Part shown: in pieces, positions 3,410 to 16,759 of the stretch
Layout: the number at the start of each line of letters is the position of its first letter
How positions within the stretch are numbered: the stretch's first letter is position 1
Position numbers and translations under genes: made by a program
Notes under the pieces: model-generated
Database searches by the model: none
What the model saw: only the letters and a program-made list of their open reading frames with translations
What the model was told of the DNA's origin: nothing
Source of the DNA: Nanobdellota archaeon
Lineage (GTDB): Archaea; Nanobdellota; Nanobdellia; Pacearchaeales; GW2011-AR1
Length of the DNA stretch: 64,000 nucleotides
Assembly: GCA_038045705.1 (NCBI GenBank)
Contig: JBBSXO010000003.1
Location: 9,237-73,236 of the forward strand
Direction of reading: 5' to 3'

Positions 3410-3739
3410 CTATCTTACATCAAGATTATTCATTTTTTGGTAAGTTTTCTTACATTTTTCAACAGCAGCATAACCCATAGCAAAGGCTAAACTTGCGGAT
3501 AAGTTATCTTCCCACACAGGTTGTACTCCAAATATAGAATATACTGAATTTGATATGTCTGCAACATAGGCTATACCCATTCCAAGTAAAAGTTTATCTA
3601 AAAAGTTGCGAGGTGCATGAGTAGGCATGTAATTTCTATCAGGATTAGCTAAAATAGATCCAGCTATTAAACCCACTCCAAATTGTAATCCTATATTGAG
3701 TGGTACCAAGTTAACTTCTAAAAGTTCAATTAAATTCAT
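3410..3739 (-). CDS. Hypothetical small membrane protein
   Basis: A 109-aa ORF with two hydrophobic segments. No recognisable motif. Confidence 0.35.
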   Translation of the reverse strand: MNLIELLEVNLVPLNIGLQFGVGLIAGSILANPDRNYMPTHAPRNFLDKLLLGMGIAYVADISNSVYSIFGVQPVWEDNLSASLAFAMGYAAVEKCKKTYQKMNNLDVR

Positions 3740-4998: not shown

Positions 4999-7539
4999 TC
5001 AAACTTTAACTTCTTCATCAGCAACTAAAACAACATCTGCAATCTTATCACTTTCTTTAAGCTTAACAACTCTAACTCCCTGAGTAGCCCTTCCCATTTC
5101 CCTCATTTCATCCATTGAAATTCTAACAACCATTCCCTGTTTTGTCGTTGCGATAATTGAAGAGTCTTCAGTAACAGGTAAAGATCTCACAACACTACCA
5201 TTTTTATCTTCAGTTCTTATATTAATAACACCCTTACCACCTCTTCCAGTCAAGCGGTAATCTTCTAGAGCACTTCTTTTACCATATCCTTTATCAGTAA
5301 CGCTCAAGATAGAAGTCTTTTGTGCATCCTTCATTGGAACAGGAACTAAAGAAACAACTTCGTCTTTTGAATTCAGTTCTATCCCCTTAACTCCATAACT
5401 AGCACGACCCATTTGTCTAACTTCATCCGCATTGAAACGTATAGCTTTCCCATCACTTGTAGTTAGTAAAACTTCCTGTTTATCACTAACACGCATAACA
5501 CTAATTAAAATATCGCTCCCATCAACAGGCATGTTCATTACACGCACACCAGTACTCCTAGGCTTAGCAACATCACTCACAGCTATCTTCTTTACTATCC
5601 CTAGTTTAGTTACAAACATCAAGTATCCTTTGTCAAAATCTGAAACAGAAAGTACATTAGCGATAGTTTCATCACGTAAATCCAAAACATTCACAAGTGC
5701 CTTTCCCTTGCTCTGGCGTTCGCTCGCAGGAACATCATTTGCCTTAAGCCAATATAACCTTCCCCTAGAAGTAAAGAATAGCAAATGATCATGAGTAGAA
5801 CATGTAATCAAGCGAGTTACAAAGTCTTCTTCCTTTAAGTCAGCACCAGTAACGCCAACTCCACCCCTTTTTTGTTCCTTGTAAACTTTAACATCTACTC
5901 GTTTAATATAACCTGAATTAGTGATCATAACAACAACATCTTTCTTCTCAACAAGATCATGTTCTGTAATTTCATCAACATTACGTATTAATTTAGTTCT
6001 TCTATCATCTCCAAATTTAGATTTTATTTCATTAATTTCTTTCTTAATTACTTTTAATATTTCTTTTTCATCTCCTAAAATACTCTTAAGTTCAGTAATC
6101 AATTCTTTCAGTTTCTTTTCTTCATCTCTAAGTTTATCAGCTTCAAGATGAGTTAATTGCTGTAATCTTATCTCAAGTACTGCTTTAGCTTGTCTATCTG
6201 TCATGCTAAATTTCTTCATGAGTCCTTCATGAGCAGCTTTTGTATCTTCAGATTTTCTTATTAATGCAACGACGGCATCAATATCTTTGAGAGCTAGTAA
6301 AAGTCCCAAAACAAGTTCAAGGCGTTCTTGTGCCTTGTTTAAATCAAATTCACTTCTTCTTCGAACAACAAGTTGACGATATTTGATATATTCTGTTATA
6401 ATATCTAGTAAATTCAAAACTCTAGGTTGCTTGCCAACTAGAGCAAGCAAGTTAGCATCGAAACTAGTTTGGATATTAGTCATTTTATACAATTGATTCA
6501 TTGTAAATTTAGGCTCGACACCTTTTTTCAATTCAATGACAATTCTTACTTTGCCTCTTGCAGACTCATCTCTTAAATCTGAGATATCTGGAAGTTTTTT
6601 TTCAGTCGCAAGCTGAGCAATATTCTTTACGAGTTCAGCTTTATTTACCATATAAGGTATCTCTGTAATGATAATTGAAGTTTTTCCTTTTTTATCCTCT
6701 TCAATTTCGCTTCTAGCACGAATAATTATTTTACCTTTACCATTTCTATACATTTCTTTAATTCCTGGGCCGGTAATTAAACCGCCAGTAGGAAAATCAG
6801 GTCCCTTAACAATCCCAATCAAATCTTCAACAGTTGCATTTGGATTTTCTATAATATGAATAACTGCATCAGAAATTTCAGTTAAATTATGAGGTGGAAT
6901 ATTTGTTGCCATACCAACAGCAATACCAGTTGCACCATTAAGCAAAAGGTTAGGCAATTTAGCAGGAAGTGTTTCAGGTTCCTTCAAATCATTAGAAAAG
7001 TTAGGTCTCATCTTTACAGTATCTTTTTCAATATCTGCAAGTAACTCTTCTGATATTTTACTTAGTTTTGCCTCGGTGTAACGATCTGCTGCCGGAGAAT
7101 CTCCATCCATGTTTCCAAAATTACCTTGCCCATGCACCAAAGGATAACGCAGAGAAAAGTCCTGAGCCATACGCACCAAAGAATCATAAATTGCCAGATT
7201 ACCATGAGGGTGATAATTACCCATTGTCTCTCCTACAATTTTAGCACATTTACGAGTAGGTTTACTATAATCTAAACCCATAACATTCATAGCATATAAT
7301 ATTCTTCTATGTACGGGCTTAAGTCCATCTTCAACAGAAGGCAATGCTCTATCAACTATAACGGACATTGCATAATCAATGAATGCCTGTTCCATCTCTT
7401 CAACAATTTCGACTCCAAAAACTCCTTTCTCTTCTCCTATTTGTTCTTTCTCACGACGTTTCTGTTCAGCCTTCAGTACTTCTTCTTCAATAGCATCTTC
7501 TTTCTTATTATCTTCTTCAGCCATTTCCAACCCCCTCAA
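4999..7539 (-). CDS. gyrA: DNA gyrase subunit A
   Basis: Contains YAMSVIVDRALP...DGLKPVHRRILY with the active-site region, and 846 aa is the expected length. A charged ~40-aa N-terminal extension is present. Confidence 0.95.
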   Translation of the reverse strand: MRGLEMAEEDNKKEDAIEEEVLKAEQKRREKEQIGEEKGVFGVEIVEEMEQAFIDYAMSVIVDRALPSVEDGLKPVHRRILYAMNVMGLDYSKPTRKCAKIVGETMGNYHPHGNLAIYDSLVRMAQDFSLRYPLVHGQGNFGNMDGDSPAADRYTEAKLSKISEELLADIEKDTVKMRPNFSNDLKEPETLPAKLPNLLLNGATGIAVGMATNIPPHNLTEISDAVIHIIENPNATVEDLIGIVKGPDFPTGGLITGPGIKEMYRNGKGKIIIRARSEIEEDKKGKTSIIITEIPYMVNKAELVKNIAQLATEKKLPDISDLRDESARGKVRIVIELKKGVEPKFTMNQLYKMTNIQTSFDANLLALVGKQPRVLNLLDIITEYIKYRQLVVRRRSEFDLNKAQERLELVLGLLLALKDIDAVVALIRKSEDTKAAHEGLMKKFSMTDRQAKAVLEIRLQQLTHLEADKLRDEEKKLKELITELKSILGDEKEILKVIKKEINEIKSKFGDDRRTKLIRNVDEITEHDLVEKKDVVVMITNSGYIKRVDVKVYKEQKRGGVGVTGADLKEEDFVTRLITCSTHDHLLFFTSRGRLYWLKANDVPASERQSKGKALVNVLDLRDETIANVLSVSDFDKGYLMFVTKLGIVKKIAVSDVAKPRSTGVRVMNMPVDGSDILISVMRVSDKQEVLLTTSDGKAIRFNADEVRQMGRASYGVKGIELNSKDEVVSLVPVPMKDAQKTSILSVTDKGYGKRSALEDYRLTGRGGKGVINIRTEDKNGSVVRSLPVTEDSSIIATTKQGMVVRISMDEMREMGRATQGVRVVKLKESDKIADVVLVADEEVKV

Positions 7540-7747
7540 TTTGTTTATTAGACTCAGGTAAGTTTTCTACTTCAACATTATTTTCTTCATGTGAATAAGT
7601 AACAGCTAAATCTAAGTCTGATGCAAGTGGAAACTGAATATTTGTTTTATGTTCTTTCAATTCCATTAAGTGAGCAATCATTTCATCTATTTCATCTTCG
7701 CTCAAAGTCACATCAATTACTTCTATCTCTTCATGTTCTTCTACCAT
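7517..7747 (-). CDS. Hypothetical small acidic protein between gyrB and gyrA
   Basis: The ATG lies 2 nt after the gyrB stop and the ORF fills the gyrB-gyrA gap (MVEEHEEIEVIDVTLSEDEIDEM...). No known motif. Confidence 0.35.
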   Translation of the reverse strand: MVEEHEEIEVIDVTLSEDEIDEMIAHLMELKEHKTNIQFPLASDLDLAVTYSHEENNVEVENLPESNKQIEGVGNG

Positions 7748-7748
7748 T

Positions 7749-9650
7749 TTAAATATCAATTTGCGCCTCCGACGCTCTTTCTGCAATAAACTGCTTTCGG
7801 TGCTCAACCTCATCACCCATCAGTTTAGAGAATACTTCATCAGCTTTTACTCCATCCTCAATTTTTACTCTCTTTAACATTCGAGTTTTAGGATTCATAG
7901 TAGTGTCCCATAACTGATCAGCATTCATTTCTCCAAGACCCTTAAATCTTTGAACATCCACATTACCACCAAGTTTAGAAATCAGTTCTTTTAATTCTTT
8001 ATCTGAATAGACATAATGATCTCCACGCTTACGTACTCTGTATAAAGGAGATACTGCAATGTAAATATGCCCATTCTCAATTAGTTTTGGAGTGAATCTA
8101 AAAAAGAAAGTAAGCAAAAGTGTTCTAATGTGTGCTCCATCCACATCAGCGTCAGTCATAATAATTATTTTAGAATATCTTAATTTAGAAATATCAAACT
8201 GCTCATTTATTCCTGCTCCTGTAGCCGTAATCATATTTGTAATTTCTTCATTTGATAAAACCTTAACTGGCTGAGCTTTCTCAACATTCAAAATCTTACC
8301 CTTTAAAGGTAATATTGCTTGAAATTCTTTATTACGTGCTTGTTTGCTACTGCCAGCCGCAGAATCTCCTTCCACAAGGTAAAGTTCAGTTTCTTCAGTC
8401 TTATTAGAAGAACAATCTGCAAGTTTGCCAGGAAGACCTCCAACTGAAAACGCATTCTTTCTACGAATCAATTCTTTAGCTTTCTTAGCAGCATTACGCG
8501 CCCTTTGTCCTTCAATTGCTTTATCGACAATTTTACGAGCAACTTGAGGGTTCTCTTCAAAAAACTCAGTCATTGCAAGCATAGAAACGCTATCAACTAT
8601 TCCCTTAACATCGCTATTGCCTAACTTTGTCTTCGTCTGTCCTTCAAATTGTGGTTCTGGAACTTTAACGGAAATTATAGCAGTCAAACCTTCACGAACA
8701 TCATCGCCTGTAACATTTCCATCCTTAAGCAGTTTACTCTTATTCCCATAATCATTTATTGCGCGAGTTAGTGCCGTCTTAAATCCTACAACATGAGTCC
8801 CGCCCTCAATAGTATTAATTGTATTAACGAAACTCAAAACGTTTTCCTGATAACCATCATTATATTGAACTGCACACTCCACAAACATTTTATCTTGTTC
8901 TTTCATGAAATAAACAGGTTTAAGATGAATTGGTTGTCTTGTCCTATTAACCCATTTCACAAAATCAATGAGACCACCCTCATAACTAAAAATCTCTTTC
9001 TTATTAGTTATCTTATCAGTTAAACTGATTTTTACACCTTTGTTCAAGAATGCAATTTCTCTAAATCTAGTTTCTAAAACAGAAAAATCAAACTTAGTTG
9101 TTGAAAATATAGTTTCATCAGGAGTAAAAGTAACTGAAGTCCCTGTCTGTTTTTTATCACAATCTCCAACGGTCTTCAATTTATAGATTGGTTTACCAAT
9201 TTCATATTCTTGCTGATATATTTTACCATCTCTCTTAATTACAACCTTGAAACTCTTAGATAAAGCTGCAACGACGCTTATACCAACTCCGTGAAGTCCT
9301 CCTGAAATCTTATAACTCCCCTTATCGAACTTTCCTCCAGCGTGCAATTTAGTGATTACAACTTCGACAGTAGGAATTTTATAAACTGGATGAGGGTCAA
9401 CAGGAATCCCACGACCATTATCTTCAACAGTTACGCTACCATCAGCATTAAGGGTAATGTCAATGTCGGTACAATAACCAGCCATAGCCTCATCAACAGA
9501 GTTATCTACTATTTCATCAACAAGTTTATGTAGGCCATATTTGCTCGTGCTACCAATATACATACTTGGTCTATGTCTTACTCCTTCCAAACCTTCCAGT
9601 ACCTTAATATTTTCTCCAGAGTAATTTTTTGCTTCTTTTTCAGATGCCAT
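7749..9650 (-). CDS. gyrB: DNA gyrase subunit B
   Basis: N-terminal YSGENIKVLEGLEGVRHRPSMYIGST, GHKL ATPase and Toprim motifs, 633 aa. Confidence 0.95.
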   Translation of the reverse strand: MASEKEAKNYSGENIKVLEGLEGVRHRPSMYIGSTSKYGLHKLVDEIVDNSVDEAMAGYCTDIDITLNADGSVTVEDNGRGIPVDPHPVYKIPTVEVVITKLHAGGKFDKGSYKISGGLHGVGISVVAALSKSFKVVIKRDGKIYQQEYEIGKPIYKLKTVGDCDKKQTGTSVTFTPDETIFSTTKFDFSVLETRFREIAFLNKGVKISLTDKITNKKEIFSYEGGLIDFVKWVNRTRQPIHLKPVYFMKEQDKMFVECAVQYNDGYQENVLSFVNTINTIEGGTHVVGFKTALTRAINDYGNKSKLLKDGNVTGDDVREGLTAIISVKVPEPQFEGQTKTKLGNSDVKGIVDSVSMLAMTEFFEENPQVARKIVDKAIEGQRARNAAKKAKELIRRKNAFSVGGLPGKLADCSSNKTEETELYLVEGDSAAGSSKQARNKEFQAILPLKGKILNVEKAQPVKVLSNEEITNMITATGAGINEQFDISKLRYSKIIIMTDADVDGAHIRTLLLTFFFRFTPKLIENGHIYIAVSPLYRVRKRGDHYVYSDKELKELISKLGGNVDVQRFKGLGEMNADQLWDTTMNPKTRMLKRVKIEDGVKADEVFSKLMGDEVEHRKQFIAERASEAQIDI

Positions 9651-10602
9651 TTTCTTCTCCTATTTTATATTTCATGCTACTCAAAAGGTAAGGCTTAATT
9701 ATTTTAACTAATTTTTTAGTATCATCTTGTTTAAACCTTAAATAATAATATTTACCATCTCTAAAACCAATTGTTGGATCTAGTCCAAATTTGTTATTAA
9801 AAAACTTTTTCATTAAATTATGCTCTTCTAAAGAATAAGCATTGGTGCATAAAATAATATAACCTTGAGTTCTGCTATAACTCCCATCATCACATACCCA
9901 TACTGCCAAGGAAGATGGATTTAACTGGTCTAAAATTTCTTGAGTTATAATCTTTCTTCCATTTTTGTAAAATAAATTTCTATAATAATTAAAAGCAGGA
10001 TGAGTATTTGTTGCAAAGTCCATAGCTTCGATAATGTGATCCTTAACTTTTCTTTTTACTTCTCTAAATTCACTTATCTTAAAATTCTTTAAAATATCAT
10101 GTTTCCATTGCGCATATAGTCTTTGCTTTGTCGAATGAGTAAATCTAAAGCAACTATTTTTTTCTCTCTGCCTTACACTAGCATCTCCCAATAAACTCCC
10201 CAATACTAAGTCATGCTCCTCCTGAGTTAACAAAATTCTAGGATTATTAGCTAAATCAAAATTCCATTTTTTAACAGATTCATATAATTTTCTTGCACTT
10301 AAAAAGTTAATATCATTTAGTTCAGCAAATTTCATTAATTCTCTATCAGTTCTTATTCTAGATAGAGCATTTGCTTTGCTTTTATGGATATTAGGAAAGA
10401 AAGATAAAATGCGGGCTTCTTCAACTGCATGTTGTAAGACATAAGGTTTGACATGAATTTCTTGAGATAAAATAAATATATCTCCATGTTTCTTAACTTT
10501 CCTCCTAAGTTCAATTATATCAAACTTTTTACGTATCTCTCCTAAATTATCTAAAACCTTGATATTTTCACCCGTATAACCTTTTTCACTCATACAAGTC
10601 AA
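9640..10602 (-). CDS. LAGLIDADG homing endonuclease (two-motif, single-chain) carrying a GyrB-like N-terminal ~20 aa
   Basis: Motif 1 is LVLGSLLGDASV and motif 2 is LAVWVCDDGSYS. The N-terminus MSEKGYTGENIKVLDNLGEIRKK parallels GyrB MASEKEAKNYSGENIKVLEGLEGVRHR. Its 3' end overlaps the gyrB start by 11 nt. Confidence 0.75.
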   Translation of the reverse strand: MTCMSEKGYTGENIKVLDNLGEIRKKFDIIELRRKVKKHGDIFILSQEIHVKPYVLQHAVEEARILSFFPNIHKSKANALSRIRTDRELMKFAELNDINFLSARKLYESVKKWNFDLANNPRILLTQEEHDLVLGSLLGDASVRQREKNSCFRFTHSTKQRLYAQWKHDILKNFKISEFREVKRKVKDHIIEAMDFATNTHPAFNYYRNLFYKNGRKIITQEILDQLNPSSLAVWVCDDGSYSRTQGYIILCTNAYSLEEHNLMKKFFNNKFGLDPTIGFRDGKYYYLRFKQDDTKKLVKIIKPYLLSSMKYKIGEENGI

Positions 10603-10644
10603 AATAGAAAAACACCTTTATAAACCTTTATGCATAAAATTAAT

Positions 10645-10662
10645 CATTTATCGACGATAAAA
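10645..10662. promoter_or_regulatory. Palindrome TTTATCG-A-CGATAAA in the L24e/homing-endonuclease intergenic region; candidate operator
   Basis: A perfect 7+1+7 palindrome is seen. Related half-sites recur at 18022-18036 and 18058-18070. Confidence 0.25.
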
Positions 10663-10688
10663 TAGTCAAATAAAATTTAGAAAAAACA

Positions 10689-10886
10689 TCACTTTTTTAC
10701 AGCTTTATGCACATTTCTATAAGCTTCTGTCCAACTAACTCTCTTTCTATCTCTCTTAAGTTTCAGATGACTTTTGTGACACTTTGAGCTACAATAATAA
10801 TTAGTGCTTCCATCATTCTTTAATAAATAAGTTCCCATGAAATCCTCTTGTTCCCTTCCACAGAAAGTACATTTTGCCAAACTCAT
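10689..10886 (-). CDS. rpl24e: Ribosomal protein L24e
   Basis: CTFCG...YCSSKC zinc-ribbon with ...WTEAYR. 65 aa. Confidence 0.9.
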   Translation of the reverse strand: MSLAKCTFCGREQEDFMGTYLLKNDGSTNYYCSSKCHKSHLKLKRDRKRVSWTEAYRNVHKAVKK

Positions 10887-10888
10887 GT

Positions 10889-11188
10889 TTAAGAATGGGC
10901 TCCTTTTGTAGCACCTTTAACACGACGTGCCTCAATTTCAGTTTCTCTTAATGTAATTAAATCTCCAATTCTTACAGGTCCTTTAACATTTCGCCTCATT
11001 TCTTTACCGTTATTCCTACCTTCTAAAATTTTACATTCAACTTGAGTTATCTCTCCCCTAGCACCAGTTCTTAAAATCAATTTTTGAATAACTGCTTTCG
11101 CAGGAGTCTCATTAGAAAGTTTACCTGGAGAACTAGACGGAGACTGATTTGTATTTTCCTTAACTGGTCTAAGTTTGTTTCCACCCAT
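10889..11188 (-). CDS. rps28e: Ribosomal protein S28e (with N-terminal extension)
   Basis: PAKAVIQKLILRTGARGEITQVECKILEG...NVKGPVRIGDLITLRETEIEARR. Confidence 0.9.
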   Translation of the reverse strand: MGGNKLRPVKENTNQSPSSSPGKLSNETPAKAVIQKLILRTGARGEITQVECKILEGRNNGKEMRRNVKGPVRIGDLITLRETEIEARRVKGATKGAHS

Positions 11189-11190
11189 TT

Positions 11191-11505
11191 TTACTTGCCT
11201 CTTGAGTTATGTAATATCTGTATTTCTTTATCTGCTTCACCAGCATCAATTATTGCAACAGCACTTGTAGAAACAGGAATTCCAACAGCAACACCTAGTT
11301 TTTGCTTAGAGTCCACTTCAAAGCAAGGAATATTTTTCTCTTTAGAAAGAACTGCAAGATGAGCAACAATTTCCTTAGGACTTACATCAGCAGCATAAAA
11401 TACAGCTTTAGCAACTCCTCTTTCAATTGCTTTAGTAACTTCGTTAGTTCCCTTATCGACCTTTCCAGTCTTTCTTGCCTTTTCTATTATATTGTAGTAG
11501 TCCAT
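11191..11505 (-). CDS. rpl7ae: Ribosomal protein L7Ae
   Basis: KTGKVDKGTNEVTKAIERGVAKAVFYAADVSPKEIV...IPCFEVDSKQKLG. Sits in the conserved L7Ae-S28e-L24e gene order. Confidence 0.92.
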   Translation of the reverse strand: MDYYNIIEKARKTGKVDKGTNEVTKAIERGVAKAVFYAADVSPKEIVAHLAVLSKEKNIPCFEVDSKQKLGVAVGIPVSTSAVAIIDAGEADKEIQILHNSRGK

Positions 11506-13132: not shown

Positions 13133-16100
13133 TTAATTTCTACCAAAAAGTCTCTTAAAAAACCTTATCAAAGCATTATCTATCTTAGCATCCTCTCCAG
13201 CAATAACAGCCCCCCCACCAGTACTTCCACCACTGTCTCCACCACTTGTCGACCCCCCACTATCTCCACCAGAAGTTGAGCCACTCGTAGAACCGCCAGA
13301 ATCTCCTGATGTTGAGCCCCCTGTATACGACCCCCCACTAGTATAGGAACCACTATCTCCTCCCGTATATGAACCACCAGTATAACTTCCTCCAGTATAA
13401 GAACCGCCTGTGTAGCTACCCCCAGTATAACCAGAACCAGTTGTTGTTCCACTATATGATCCTCCACTAGTATAACCGGAACCAGTGTATGAACCACCTG
13501 TGTAAGATCCACCAGTATATGATCCCCCAGAAGAAGGATAAGCAGCAGCATAAGCAGCTGCATCAGCTGCAGCACTATAACCTTCAGGACCATAATTCCC
13601 TCCACTATAGGTATTTGTTGCAGGATCATAAGTTCCATAACCTCCCGGATATGAGTTATAAGGTGTTCCCCCTACAGGGCCAGTATAAGATCCACTATAA
13701 GGAGCAACCCCTCCAGGATAAGCTCCACCGGGCCACCCTGCTGCAGCTGCAGCAGGATTATAACCACCATAACCTGAAGCTCCAGGACCCATGGAACCAC
13801 CCATTGAAGCACCATATTCTTCAGCAGTAACAGTACTTCCGTCAGGTCTAACACCATTATACATCCCATCAGGTCTCACATGCCAAATAATTCCATTACC
13901 AGTACCATCGACGATTGTAGAGGGTCTTGCAACATAAGCTCCTTGTTGACCAGCGTAAGAACCAAATGTAGCTGCACCACCATAGTAACCATTGTAATTT
14001 CCACCAGCAACATAACTTCCATATCCAGCATATCCAGATCTACCACTAGATGAAGGAGTAGCAGGACTTAAACTTGGAGAGCCATCCACGGGAGCAGTTG
14101 GAGAAGGAGCAACACTTCCATCTATTTTCCAAGAACCATCAGCATTTTTTACCCAAGTGTTTCCATTCATGTCTTCTTGCTTTTCTTTACCCTCTTCAAC
14201 TCGATATTTCGGATCAAATTTTTGATAATTATCATATTGAGTATAAGTTCCGCTGGGATTGTAAACATAATAAGAATTAGAGTAAGTATTTTGTCTTACT
14301 TCAGTAGGAGCTGTACTTCCTTCACTGGTAGTGTAATATCCCCCATATTTATAGTCGCCACAGCCAACACATTCACCTGTTTTCATATTCCATGATTTGC
14401 TTCCATCACTAGCAGCCCACATGCCTGTTGCAGCATCAAATCCCCAAGGTTTTCCAGTGGCATCAACTACGCCCTCGACATAAGGTTTAACTTGTCCCCT
14501 ATAATCCGTATATGTTCCATCTGGAGCTACATAACCATAAGCACTTGGTGGAGGTGCAAAAACATTCCCACTAGAAGATTGCCAAGTTCCATCAGAAGAG
14601 TCCCAAGACCAAATTATGCCTTTAGCATCAGTATAACTGCCAGCATTTTCATGACCAACAGGACCATCTACAAAAGAACGCTGTACTACAACGCCATTAG
14701 TAGATTCTTTCCAAACACCATCTCCTTCATAATGCCATTTAGAGCCATCAGCAACAGAATAAACATATTCGTCGTTTGTCGCATCATAATTGTAAACATC
14801 ATCATGATAAAGAGTTCCTTCAGAAGGGGTAAATACTTGTCCGCTCTCTCCATTTACTAAAGAGGTCTCCCAAGTTGGATCATAGTCCCATTGAGTGACA
14901 AGTCCTGTATTATCTGTATAAGTAACTGAAATAGGACCTACTAATCCAACTCCATCTCCTTCAAAAATATAAGTTCCTTCAGCATAAGGCAAAGCAACTT
15001 CTTCATGGTTTGCAATAACTGTTTCTACTGTCTCTGCCTCTGTTTCAGAAGCAGTTTCTTCGGTGGCTGAATCACTAGATTCTACATTTGCCTCATAACC
15101 TGTTGTCGAGAAAATATACTCTACAATTGTTCCATCAGCAGCTTCTGACCTATAATTATAAACTTCATTTCCTCTTTCAAAATCAGCTGTTGTAGCAAAA
15201 CCAACAGGGTATTCCTGAGTATAACTTACACCAGATCTTGTAGTTACAACATAATTATTCTCCCCGTAAGTATAAATATAACCAGTAGCAGGATCAGAGT
15301 AAGGAACACTATGAGCATATGCTCCTGCCCAAACATAATTCTCATTCCATTCTCCATCTCTATATCCTCTAATAACTCCGTCTTCTCCAACTTCAATTCT
15401 TCCAAGAGGAACAGCATCTGTATTCTCTCCTTCAGTTTGTTCAGTTTCTGTAGTAATCATTCCAGGACCAAAAAAGTCCTCTGCTTGTCCATAAACAGCA
15501 TTCCATTCTTGTGCCCATCTTTCACCAACTGCCCTTTCTAAATCATTACCAGTTAACCCATCAGCAGTTAATTCAGCTCTCCATTGTTCCATCACTCCAT
15601 TTCCATATAATTGTTGTCCGAGAAGTCTTGCATTTTCTGCTCTTACATTTTCAGCACGTAAAGCAACTAATCTTTCAGGATCATCAGCATACTCTTGCAC
15701 AAGAGAATCATAATCTTCAATCAATTCCTCTGCAATTAATTGCTCTCTTTCTGTTTCAGCGACCAATTCTTCTGGAGTGAATGGCTCTGTATAAGCTAAA
15801 ACATCTTCATCAACATTACTAACCTCAGCGCCATCTGCAATTAATTCAGCGTTCTCTAAAAGAGATTCACTTTCTTGCAAGTGACCAAATCCTTCTAGAC
15901 TAAGCTCGGCTTCTTCAGCATGTAAACATTCAGTAGCATGCCTGTGAGCGGTATTCAATAATTCTCTTATTGCTTCTGCTCTTTCTGTATCTCCTTCTGC
16001 CTCTAGTTGATTAGCTTCTTCTTGCAATTGTATGATCTGATCTCTAACTTCTGCAATGGTTTGAGTATTAGCTATAGCCTGCATTCTTGCTTGTAAAGTT

Positions 16101-16759
16101 GGGTCATTGCTAAATGCGTAATCTTGAAAAGTATTTCCAACTTCAAATGTTGAAGCATCACTGTTTTCAGCCACACCTTCAATAACTTCAATTCTTCTGC
16201 CCTCTACACCTGCATTTACATCTGCGACAGACAGTTGGATATCATTAAGTAAATCTAAAGTTTCAGCCTCATCTATTACACCATTAGCAATCTGTTCATC
16301 TAATGCAATTTCAAGAATATCAACATATTCGCTATAAGTCAAAGCCGTTTCAAATTCACCTGCTAATTCAATAGCAACAGAGTCAAAATTGTCAAGAGTA
16401 ACTCCTTCAACACTAACTTCTTCAACTTCTAAATCTGCTTCAATACCTGCTAATTCTTCAGCCATTCCATTCAATGCATCTTGTGCAGCTTCTATATCTC
16501 CATCTTCAATACAAATACCTGCTTCGTGATAATATTCTTCAGGAGTATGAGTGAAATCTAGAAAATCATACCAATCTTGGGGAGTTATTCCTGCAACATC
16601 CTCGCTAAAAACTATTTCACTAGTAGAATCAACTCCAGACAAATCTTCAGTTTCAGGAGCATCTTGTGCATAAACACTAACACCAAAAAAACTAAAGAAG
16701 ATTAATGATATTAAAAAAATAGAACTTACCCTCGAGAAAATCAATTTATTTCCCATCAC
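13133..16759 (-). CDS. Large (1208 aa) secreted, highly acidic (Glu/Asp/Ala-rich) protein with a beta-rich W/Y/G middle region and a C-terminal GGSYT tandem array
   Basis: Signal peptide MMGNKLIFSRVSSIFLISLIFFSFFGVSVYAQD. The N-terminal half is about 25% D/E. W..DG.W repeats occur in the middle. Nucleotide composition is visibly GC-richer than the surrounding sequence. Confidence 0.8.
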   Translation of the reverse strand: MMGNKLIFSRVSSIFLISLIFFSFFGVSVYAQDAPETEDLSGVDSTSEIVFSEDVAGITPQDWYDFLDFTHTPEEYYHEAGICIEDGDIEAAQDALNGMAEELAGIEADLEVEEVSVEGVTLDNFDSVAIELAGEFETALTYSEYVDILEIALDEQIANGVIDEAETLDLLNDIQLSVADVNAGVEGRRIEVIEGVAENSDASTFEVGNTFQDYAFSNDPTLQARMQAIANTQTIAEVRDQIIQLQEEANQLEAEGDTERAEAIRELLNTAHRHATECLHAEEAELSLEGFGHLQESESLLENAELIADGAEVSNVDEDVLAYTEPFTPEELVAETEREQLIAEELIEDYDSLVQEYADDPERLVALRAENVRAENARLLGQQLYGNGVMEQWRAELTADGLTGNDLERAVGERWAQEWNAVYGQAEDFFGPGMITTETEQTEGENTDAVPLGRIEVGEDGVIRGYRDGEWNENYVWAGAYAHSVPYSDPATGYIYTYGENNYVVTTRSGVSYTQEYPVGFATTADFERGNEVYNYRSEAADGTIVEYIFSTTGYEANVESSDSATEETASETEAETVETVIANHEEVALPYAEGTYIFEGDGVGLVGPISVTYTDNTGLVTQWDYDPTWETSLVNGESGQVFTPSEGTLYHDDVYNYDATNDEYVYSVADGSKWHYEGDGVWKESTNGVVVQRSFVDGPVGHENAGSYTDAKGIIWSWDSSDGTWQSSSGNVFAPPPSAYGYVAPDGTYTDYRGQVKPYVEGVVDATGKPWGFDAATGMWAASDGSKSWNMKTGECVGCGDYKYGGYYTTSEGSTAPTEVRQNTYSNSYYVYNPSGTYTQYDNYQKFDPKYRVEEGKEKQEDMNGNTWVKNADGSWKIDGSVAPSPTAPVDGSPSLSPATPSSSGRSGYAGYGSYVAGGNYNGYYGGAATFGSYAGQQGAYVARPSTIVDGTGNGIIWHVRPDGMYNGVRPDGSTVTAEEYGASMGGSMGPGASGYGGYNPAAAAAGWPGGAYPGGVAPYSGSYTGPVGGTPYNSYPGGYGTYDPATNTYSGGNYGPEGYSAAADAAAYAAAYPSSGGSYTGGSYTGGSYTGSGYTSGGSYSGTTTGSGYTGGSYTGGSYTGGSYTGGSYTGGDSGSYTSGGSYTGGSTSGDSGGSTSGSTSGGDSGGSTSGGDSGGSTGGGAVIAGEDAKIDNALIRFFKRLFGRN
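13211..13530 (-). repeat. 15-nt-period coding tandem repeat encoding (GGSYT)n / (GGDSGGSTS)n
   Basis: Protein C-terminus GGSYTGGSYTGGSYTGSGYT...GGDSGGSTSGGDSGGSTGGG. The DNA shows repeating ccaccagtata(a/t)ga-type units. Confidence 0.85.

Follow-up and report, generated by a model that had tools for sequence, protein, structure and literature searches.

How can a mobile endonuclease gene settle within the start of an essential gene, with neither an intron nor an intein to remove it again, and leave the host protein complete? This question is raised by a locus in a 64,000-nucleotide stretch of DNA (the window) whose source contig comes from the Hainich groundwater metagenomes and belongs to a DPANN archaeon listed by NCBI as 'Nanoarchaeota archaeon'. 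Here gyrB (7749-9650, minus strand) is directly preceded, on the same strand, by an open reading frame (ORF) with LAGLIDADG motifs, which occupies 9640-10602 if it begins at a TTG codon (320 amino acids, aa) or 9640-10593 if it begins at an ATG codon (317 aa), the latter start being favoured by both the family alignment and the NCBI gene call. An earlier reading of this DNA (the sequence-only reading) took the ORF for a homing endonuclease gene that had invaded gyrB, the host gene having been restored by a duplication of its 5' end. The analysis reported here indicates that the ORF is, probably, a free-standing homing endonuclease gene of the I-SceI type that is specific for gyrB, captures the promoter and start of its host gene, carries a replacement for the 5' end that it displaces, and spreads by homing.

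The endonuclease gene and its product

The two LAGLIDADG motifs noticed in the sequence-only reading are both present in the one chain, LVLGSLLGDASV at 10174-10209 and LAVWVCDDGSYS at 9874-9909, and the protein matches the Pfam family LAGLIDADG_2 (PF03161) over profile positions 3-168 of 168 (E=1.4e-41, 142.6 bits against a cut-off of 25). When a profile of 30 family members was compared with the PDB, I-SceI structures were retrieved (E=2.5e-19) with I-SceI residues 28-225 covered, and the segments GDAS (Asp137) and CDDG (Asp235/236) align with GDAY (Asp44) and MDDG (Asp145) of I-SceI. Both catalytic Asp residues are invariant in the family alignment, and W[IV]CDDGS is found in 79 of 81 loci. 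The ORF is, to judge from these comparisons, an I-SceI-type LAGLIDADG endonuclease in which both catalytic Asp residues are kept, and nuclease activity is predicted. With I-SceI, the endonuclease of the group I intron in yeast mitochondrial 21S rRNA, it shares the two-motif single-chain core, both catalytic Asp residues and a C-terminal ...KPY(L/I).xxM.YK motif. In contrast to I-SceI, it does not reside in an intron, it is encoded on an archaeal chromosome, its putative target is protein-coding rather than rRNA, and it has at its N-terminus an additional conserved domain of ~100 aa together with a host-derived relic of 23 codons.

The protein has three parts, the GyrB relic (residues 1-23), a family-specific domain (residues 24-122, 10228-10524) and the I-SceI-like core (residues 123-317, 9643-10227, followed by the stop codon at 9640-9642). 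The middle part, a beta-hairpin with helices, is conserved in the family alignment and is absent both from I-SceI and from distant LAGLIDADG_2 relatives. In an AlphaFold model the predicted local confidence (pLDDT) is 80.5 over residues 1-127, with residues 1-14 below 50, and a Foldseek comparison of the middle domain with the PDB gave nothing significant, the only resemblance being a partial one to the helix-turn-helix of ParB/Noc (E~0.5). Judged from the model, the domain is probably an extra DNA-binding module. Distant relatives of the endonuclease, both on viral contigs and in a library of representatives at 50% identity, match the core alone; since those on viral contigs are only 24-32% identical and restricted to the core, they provide no evidence of a viral vehicle.

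The gene was also said to be free-standing, and this held. A Pfam search of the ORF finds PF03161 only, with no Hint/intein domain, and no Rfam intron model matches either strand of 9300-10900 at E<=1, archaeal bulge-helix-bulge introns not being specifically modelled; together these results indicate a free-standing gene. The ORF has its own stop codon (9640-9642) and gyrB its own ATG (9650), so that the locus lacks the in-frame join at both ends, as well as the Hint domain, of an intein.

The captured start and the second gyrB 5' end

The first 23 codons of the endonuclease gene (10525-10593, MSEKGYTGENIKVLDNLGEIRKK) are a captured gyrB 5' end, here called relic A. A BLASTP comparison of endonuclease residues 1-30 with GyrB gave 11/20 identities (E=3e-05, KGYTGENIKVLDNLGEIRKK against KNYSGENIKVLEGLEGVRHR), and the two 5' ends share 32/54 nucleotides (nt) over a 54-nt core, which bears out the earlier proposal that the N-terminus is a diverged copy of that of GyrB. 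Chance similarity is excluded, since the GyrB-like motif Y....I.VL.GL..VR is intact in 103 of the 120 best homologues. The native GyrB leader in the window's closest relatives is M(A/G)EKGYTGENIKVLEGLEGVRLRPAMYIG, and the endonuclease leader, MSEKGYTGEN, resembles the MAEKGYTGEN of the loci L162 and L163, to whose native gyrB the 5' part of relic A is orthologous. The 3' part is diverged: compared with L162, the leader is identical at 13/15 nt, the first 27 nt of the core at 23/27 and the last 27 nt at 11/27.

The promoter was captured with the start, again as had been proposed. The 95 nt upstream of the endonuclease ORF are 69-72/95 identical to the regions upstream of gyrB in endonuclease-free relatives, compared with 54-58/95 for a non-homologous control. 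They contain a native gyrB block resembling a B recognition element and TATA box (GCATAAAGGTTTATAAAGG, 10615-10633, with TTTATAAA at 10617-10624), which has homologues in the promoters of gyrB in L002, L162 and L163, and directly upstream of it a palindrome (TTTATCGTCGATAAA, 10647-10661) that is kept upstream of gyrB where the endonuclease is absent. Both the palindrome, TTTATCG(T/A)CGATAAA, and the TTTATAAA box are common to the window and the empty-site upstream regions. The TATA-like block is centred ~27 nt before the ATG at 10593 and no Shine-Dalgarno (SD) sequence stands in front of that ATG, so that the native mRNA was probably leaderless; going by archaeal promoter geometry, the leaderless mRNA probably now starts at the endonuclease ORF. 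As a side observation, the palindrome adjoins the gyrB TATA box in the window, L002, L162, L163, L165 and L187-L190, and may serve as the operator at which gyrase expression is regulated.

Further downstream gyrB starts anew. Its codons 1-27 (9570-9650, MASEKEAKNYSGENIKVLEGLEGVRHR) form a replacement 5' end, A', which is joined in frame to the remainder of the gene (codons 28-633, 7749-9569), itself intact, without an intein and with the Pfam domains HATPase_c, DNA_gyraseB, Toprim and DNA_gyraseB_C. The 3' end of the endonuclease gene, stop codon included, overlaps the gyrB start by the 11 nt already remarked on (9640-9650), and an SD-like AGGAG for gyrB (9657-9661) is embedded in the K-I-G-E codons of the endonuclease gene, at a distance of 6 nt from the gyrB ATG. 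An internal gyrB promoter in the 3' end of the endonuclease gene was considered and is unlikely: the centre of the candidate, ATATAAAA, is only ~15 nt upstream of the ATG, a shorter distance than an archaeal TATA box requires, and the candidate derives from the conserved codons M-K-Y-K-I. At the rebuilt junction (9552-9584, G23-G33), where GGAGTAAGACATAGA meets CCAAGTATGTATATTGGT, the window has the variant with Ser (AGT) after Pro.

The two copies probably differ in origin. The leader of the present gyrB in the window, MASEKEAKNYSGEN, is the type native to L188 (MATEKDSKSYGAEN), a member of another sub-lineage, and the leader of the relic is of the L162/L163 type, from which we infer that the relic came from the invaded recipient and that the second copy arrived with the element. 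A' is therefore, on the evidence of these leaders, probably cargo of the element and not duplicated from the same host. Of the original proposal, restoration of the host gene by a copy of its 5' end stands, and duplication within the same host is the less likely source of that copy.

Codon usage was compared across loci for both copies. The fraction of identical codons shared with native alleles is 0.416 for relic copies and 0.345 for second copies, and that among copies of like kind is 0.526 and 0.394, respectively. In the 18-codon cores amino acid identity is higher between the two copies of one locus than between copies taken from different loci (0.756 vs 0.706, P<1e-4), nucleotide identity is no higher (0.612 vs 0.614), and where residues are identical the same codon is used less often within a locus than in random pairs between loci (0.277 vs 0.341, P=0.0018). 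Gene conversion between the copies of a locus was rejected on these figures, nucleotide identity not being raised and fewer codons being shared. As a statistical pattern in the sequences, the avoidance of common codons fits selection against repeat homology. The same figures bear on a different origin of the locus, in which the host's gyrB 5' end was duplicated in tandem on the spot and so came to flank an endonuclease gene that already lay between genes, with no insertion into coding sequence and with the target elsewhere. The greater amino acid similarity within loci is what it would lead one to expect, and, the flanks being repeated, alignment by itself does not give the exact insertion point; however, the unraised nucleotide identity, the smaller number of shared codons and the derivation of the window's two leaders from different native lineages (MAEKGYTGEN of L162/163 and MATEKDSKSYGAEN of L188) all speak against it, and we consider it very unlikely.

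Distribution and mobility of the family

A protein search yielded 364 homologues of the endonuclease, the best 120 of which are full-length and 58-82% identical. Among these 120 the relic is intact in 103, partly decayed in 5 and decayed by internal deletions in 12, and it is therefore dispensable. A metagenome scan found at least 80 loci with the endonuclease, and in all 77 that have enough downstream DNA the next gene is gyrB, with its own complete N-terminus of the form M...Y.A..IKVLEGLEGVR.RP(S/A)MYIG. The two genes overlap by 8 nt (34 loci), 11 nt (19 loci) or 1-7 nt (11 loci), or are separated by 1-3 nt (5 loci). In 70 of 71 non-redundant loci the 18 nt that precede the gyrB ATG contain (A)GGAG or a similar G-rich motif (GGTG once, GGGG five times). 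At least one of the genes for L7Ae, S28e and L24e is found upstream in 29 of the 60 loci with at least 700 nt of upstream sequence, the rest having other contexts, which shows that the specificity is for gyrB and not for the neighbourhood. By these sequence comparisons the insertion is a widespread, gyrB-specific family of DPANN archaea (Nanoarchaeota/Pacearchaeota at NCBI) and not a one-off event.

It is most improbable that the ORF is left over from an intein, or from the endonuclease gene of an intron, that was once spliced from the gyrB protein or RNA. It is true that the reading frame continues from the upstream gyrB codons into the ORF, as often happens where an intron ORF is joined to the exon before it, and that the gyrB genes of relatives have inteins at other sites. 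Against this, the ORF ends in a stop codon before a complete gyrB that has its own start, the Hint domain and the Rfam intron match (E<=1, 9300-10900) are both missing, and it is the downstream 5' copy that is conserved and translated and the upstream copy that decays, the reverse of what splicing would need.

The homing reading also calls for relatives with unoccupied sites, and the comparison with related gyrB loci that the sequence-only reading had suggested supplied them. The endonuclease gene is absent from nine relatives whose GyrB is 76-93% identical (L002, L162, L163/164, L165, L166, L187, L188, L189 and L190); L002 was the one useful relative among the listed matches of a GyrB scan of reference genomes, which were otherwise taken up by bacterial gyrB, and the others from protein searches and contig look-ups. 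In the window the genes for L7Ae (11191-11505), S28e (10889-11188) and L24e (10689-10886) precede the endonuclease gene, and gyrA (4999-7539) follows gyrB, all on the minus strand; the order L7Ae-S28e-L24e-gyrB is kept in the empty loci L163, L165, L187 and L189.

Element and host have diverged incongruently. Pairwise endonuclease and GyrB distances are weakly correlated (r=0.43), with extremes in both directions: L117 and L149 differ by 0.057 in GyrB and by 0.37 in the endonuclease, and L129 and L149 by 0.33 and 0.18, respectively. Sliding identity profiles are mosaic, with breakpoints at the start of the endonuclease gene, within it and ~50 nt before its stop codon, and the endonuclease segment is more AT-rich than its flanks. 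Ratios of nonsynonymous to synonymous divergence (dN/dS) of 0.11-0.25 in nine pairs show purifying selection on the endonuclease, and in the pair L149/L156 its dS (0.40) is well under that of GyrB (0.91). In its distances, profiles and dS values, and in its presence and absence among close relatives, the gene behaves as a mobile element.

Several side observations concern the surroundings of these loci. Between gyrB and gyrA the window has a small, very acidic ORF (7517-7747, minus strand, ~76 aa, MVEEHEEIEVIDVTLSEDEIDEM...) that lies against the gyrB stop codon and runs into the start of gyrA. At this position L162, L163, L187 and L188 likewise have ORFs of 65-77 aa, and L165, L166 and L189 have none; the products have no Pfam family on record. 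L002 (1485-2497) and L166 (1884-2790), both Ser-type and endonuclease-free, have two extra ORFs between the L24e gene and the gyrB promoter, one of 208-225 aa on the plus strand and one of 87-112 aa on the minus strand, which are absent from the window, L163, L165, L187 and L189; the pair in L166 has no Pfam hit on record. Elsewhere in the window, a 1208-aa ORF (13133-16759, minus strand), whose product has an N-terminus resembling a signal sequence and, towards the C-terminus, a long run of GGSYTG/SGGSTS repeats, probably encodes a surface protein unrelated to the endonuclease.

Putative target, variant alleles and related systems

Where would such an enzyme cut? The homology between relic and native gyrB stops after the Arg codon of ...GVR-x-R, and it is after these codons that the element stands in frame, the endonuclease gene starting with the host promoter, the ATG and ~23 codons. 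At its 3' end the element supplies a GGAG ribosome-binding site, a new ATG overlapping the stop codon, and second gyrB codons 1-27 joined in frame to the rest. In one locus, L102, the relic goes on to include ...VRLRPA, and behind it lies an older relic in decay (VESIRQNY...). The younger relic, with its Pro-Ala, represents a fossil of an invaded RPA allele and places the break within the coding region, which is a further argument against a tandem duplication around an intergenic gene, as is the clustering of endonuclease-linked variants at one codon. On this alignment evidence the target of the endonuclease would be the R-P-A-M-Y codons of uninvaded gyrB. In L102 itself (3610-3720) the relic is nested, a fresh gyrB 5' end being fused to the older, internally deleted one and then to the endonuclease body, which points to one invasion followed by another, the later of them joined on its left without homology.

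The codon after Pro, which like the frameshift of related loci described below points to the same place, differs between invaded and other alleles. Of the non-redundant endonuclease loci, 54 have Ser here, 7 have Ala in frame and 10 have Ala in a shifted frame, and in the 117 nearest GyrB homologues it is Ala in 107 and Ser in 10, an enrichment of Ser that is significant overall (Fisher p=2e-27) and in the near clade (p=1.8e-4) without correction for shared ancestry. Ser after Pro was rejected as a marker of the endonuclease, because all four Ser-type contigs examined are endonuclease-free; the enrichment alone remains. In one of these, L166, the 5' end is chimeric, matching the relic of L102 (58/60) in one part and the second copy of L102 (22/27) in the other. 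Such an allele would be the product of recombination between the repeats or of repair from the donor's intact junction alone. The two loci could not serve as a population-level presence/absence pair, since they are overall 75-83% identical.

These features can be combined in a scheme of invasion. A single transcript from the native promoter, probably leaderless, would encode both the endonuclease and GyrB, the latter being made by coupled, SD-dependent initiation, so that after invasion gyrB would rely on the SD sequence in the last codons of the endonuclease gene. The enzyme would cut uninvaded gyrB alleles around the R-P-A-M-Y codons, and the break would be repaired from a donor that bears the element, whereby the recipient would keep its own promoter and leader, now the relic, and gain the endonuclease body with the donor's replacement 5' end. 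With Ala changed to Ser after Pro and the second copy synonymously recoded, the rebuilt junction would be shielded and the element less often lost through recombination between the repeats; such recombination, or repair from the donor junction alone, would give rise to Ser-type alleles without the endonuclease.

A number of points weigh against this interpretation. Both the target site and the mechanism of immunity are deduced from sequence comparison, the rebuilt junction is an intact gyrB sequence, and the cross-locus statistics ignore shared ancestry. Ser-type alleles occur without the endonuclease (L002, L165, L166 and L187) and seven endonuclease loci keep an in-frame Ala, so that Ser is neither necessary nor sufficient. 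When distance matrices were compared for either half of both 5' copies, for the endonuclease, for GyrB and for the upstream DNA, all correlations fell in the range 0.03-0.40, noisy values that do not separate the endonuclease from the host as the travelling partner of the second 5' copy. In the window's own sub-clade, moreover, the window and L082 have similar dS values for the endonuclease (1.30) and gyrB (1.59), with an endonuclease dN/dS of 0.13, which looks like long vertical co-inheritance under selection and would be unexpected of a purely selfish, fixed element.

This last pair is also the kind of evidence that would favour domestication, in which a former homing endonuclease, now mainly inherited vertically, benefits the host, for example as a regulator of gyrase expression or by binding gyrase through its GyrB arm. 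The strong purifying selection (dN/dS 0.11-0.25), the invariant linkage and translational coupling with gyrB and the intact GyrB-like N-terminal peptide in 103 of 120 homologues agree with such a role. It is nevertheless unlikely, for the gene is missing from nine close relatives with an intact, conventionally arranged gyrB, endonuclease and GyrB divergences are incongruent and the loci mosaic, the relic is internally deleted in ~10-14% of members and modelled with low confidence, and both catalytic Asp residues are retained, as they would be in an active nuclease.

In ten non-redundant related loci gyrB codons 1-27 are in one frame and the remainder is in the +1 frame, an arrangement absent from the window; the frameshift loci are L113, L132-L134, L140-L142, L144, L145, L150 and L155 (for example L132 5005-5025). 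The site of the shift (AGGAGGCGTCCCCGCAATG) is invariant in the ten, GTC AGG AGG CGY CCC C GCA ATG, and lies exactly at the endonuclease junction. It consists of an SD-like AGGAGG, a 3-nt spacer and the slippery CCC_C, followed by CGC as the poor 0-frame A-site codon, which accounts for 0/314 of the Arg codons in the frameshift genes. Wobble positions vary upstream of the site and are fixed within it, and both frames are under purifying selection. From this layout the sub-clade may have a prfB-like programmed +1 frameshift in gyrB, the alternative being reinitiation at the ATG 10 nt after the AGGAGG. Two GyrB sequences that start with MYIGS (P0141, 604 aa, and P0155, 770 aa) were suspected to be further frameshift alleles and are actually truncations at contig ends. 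It is conceivable, although we would put it forward only tentatively, that the endonuclease spares the rebuilt junction through changes in the Pro-Ala codons, mostly Ala to Ser and in the one sub-clade a 1-nt insertion that creates the +1 frameshift AGGAGG-CGY-CCC_C with the unused CGC. A selfish element would in that case have forced the recoding of an essential archaeal gene, and the direct repeats left by it would keep up a cycle in which the element is gained and precisely lost and resistant alleles arise.

Within the literature searched no description of this element or of the gyrB frameshift was found, and its nearest parallels lie in other systems. The free-standing endonucleases of T-even phages and cyanophages (Seg, Mob and F-CphI), which give rise to 'intronless homing', spread by a double-strand break and co-conversion of the flanks; they are GIY-YIG or HNH enzymes that are intergenic and have their own expression signals. 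Like them, the window endonuclease is free-standing, by or within a conserved essential gene, sporadic among close relatives and accompanied by mosaic flanks, whereas they are not known to capture a host start in frame or to supply a replacement end for the host gene. In Aeromonas phage Aeh1, mobE splits nrdA ('genes in pieces') and the host gene gives two polypeptides. There too an endonuclease gene is situated inside an essential gene that stays functional; in contrast, GyrB stays one full-length chain because its displaced end is duplicated.

The host gene is shared with GyrB inteins, which are found in relatives of the window (the 830-aa GyrB of L002, matches to PF14890), but they are located in the Toprim region and spliced from the protein, while the element of the window is unspliced and lies at codon 27/28. 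As observations in their own right, gyrB inteins occur in many relatives, near residue 434, where they follow EGDSAGG, and near residue 505 (L002, 2714-5206, L082, L088, L097, L106, L109, L117, L119, L126, L129-L131, L141, L142, L148 and L157), and gyrA of L188 has an intein with LAGLIDADG_3; the gyrB and gyrA of the window have none. Gyrase is thus a hot spot for several independent selfish elements in these archaea.

The closest precedent is mitochondrial, where endonuclease genes are fused in frame to a host gene that has a duplicated or foreign 3' coding end, as in atp6 of Allomyces macrogynus, rps3 of Ophiostoma novo-ulmi and cox2 of Phlebia radiata (PMC4019555). These insertions and that of the window have in common the position within a coding region, the in-frame fusion, the second copy of the displaced terminus and the complete host protein. 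The window element differs in being at the 5' end instead of the 3' end, in taking the promoter and start so that the host gene becomes a translationally coupled second cistron, in its archaeal chromosomal host, and in belonging to a large, target-specific family. The arrangement is a 5' mirror image of the mitochondrial insertions that duplicate a 3' end.

What it adds is a new mode of occupying an essential gene, in which there is neither intron nor intein, the promoter and start are captured and a replacement 5' end is supplied. The enzyme is also a candidate tool, of the I-SceI type with a putative extra DNA-binding domain and a predictable target of ~30 bp. Gene callers and trees can be misled by the mosaic 5' region of gyrB, a gene in common use as a phylogenetic marker. 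In the frameshifted sub-clade programmed +1 frameshifting, rare in archaea, may operate on an essential gene. Sequences in public databases already include alleles with and without the element, relics in decay, one locus invaded twice in nested fashion and alleles that are candidates for resistance, and the cycle of gain, loss and resistance proposed for homing endonucleases can be examined with them in uncultured DPANN archaea.

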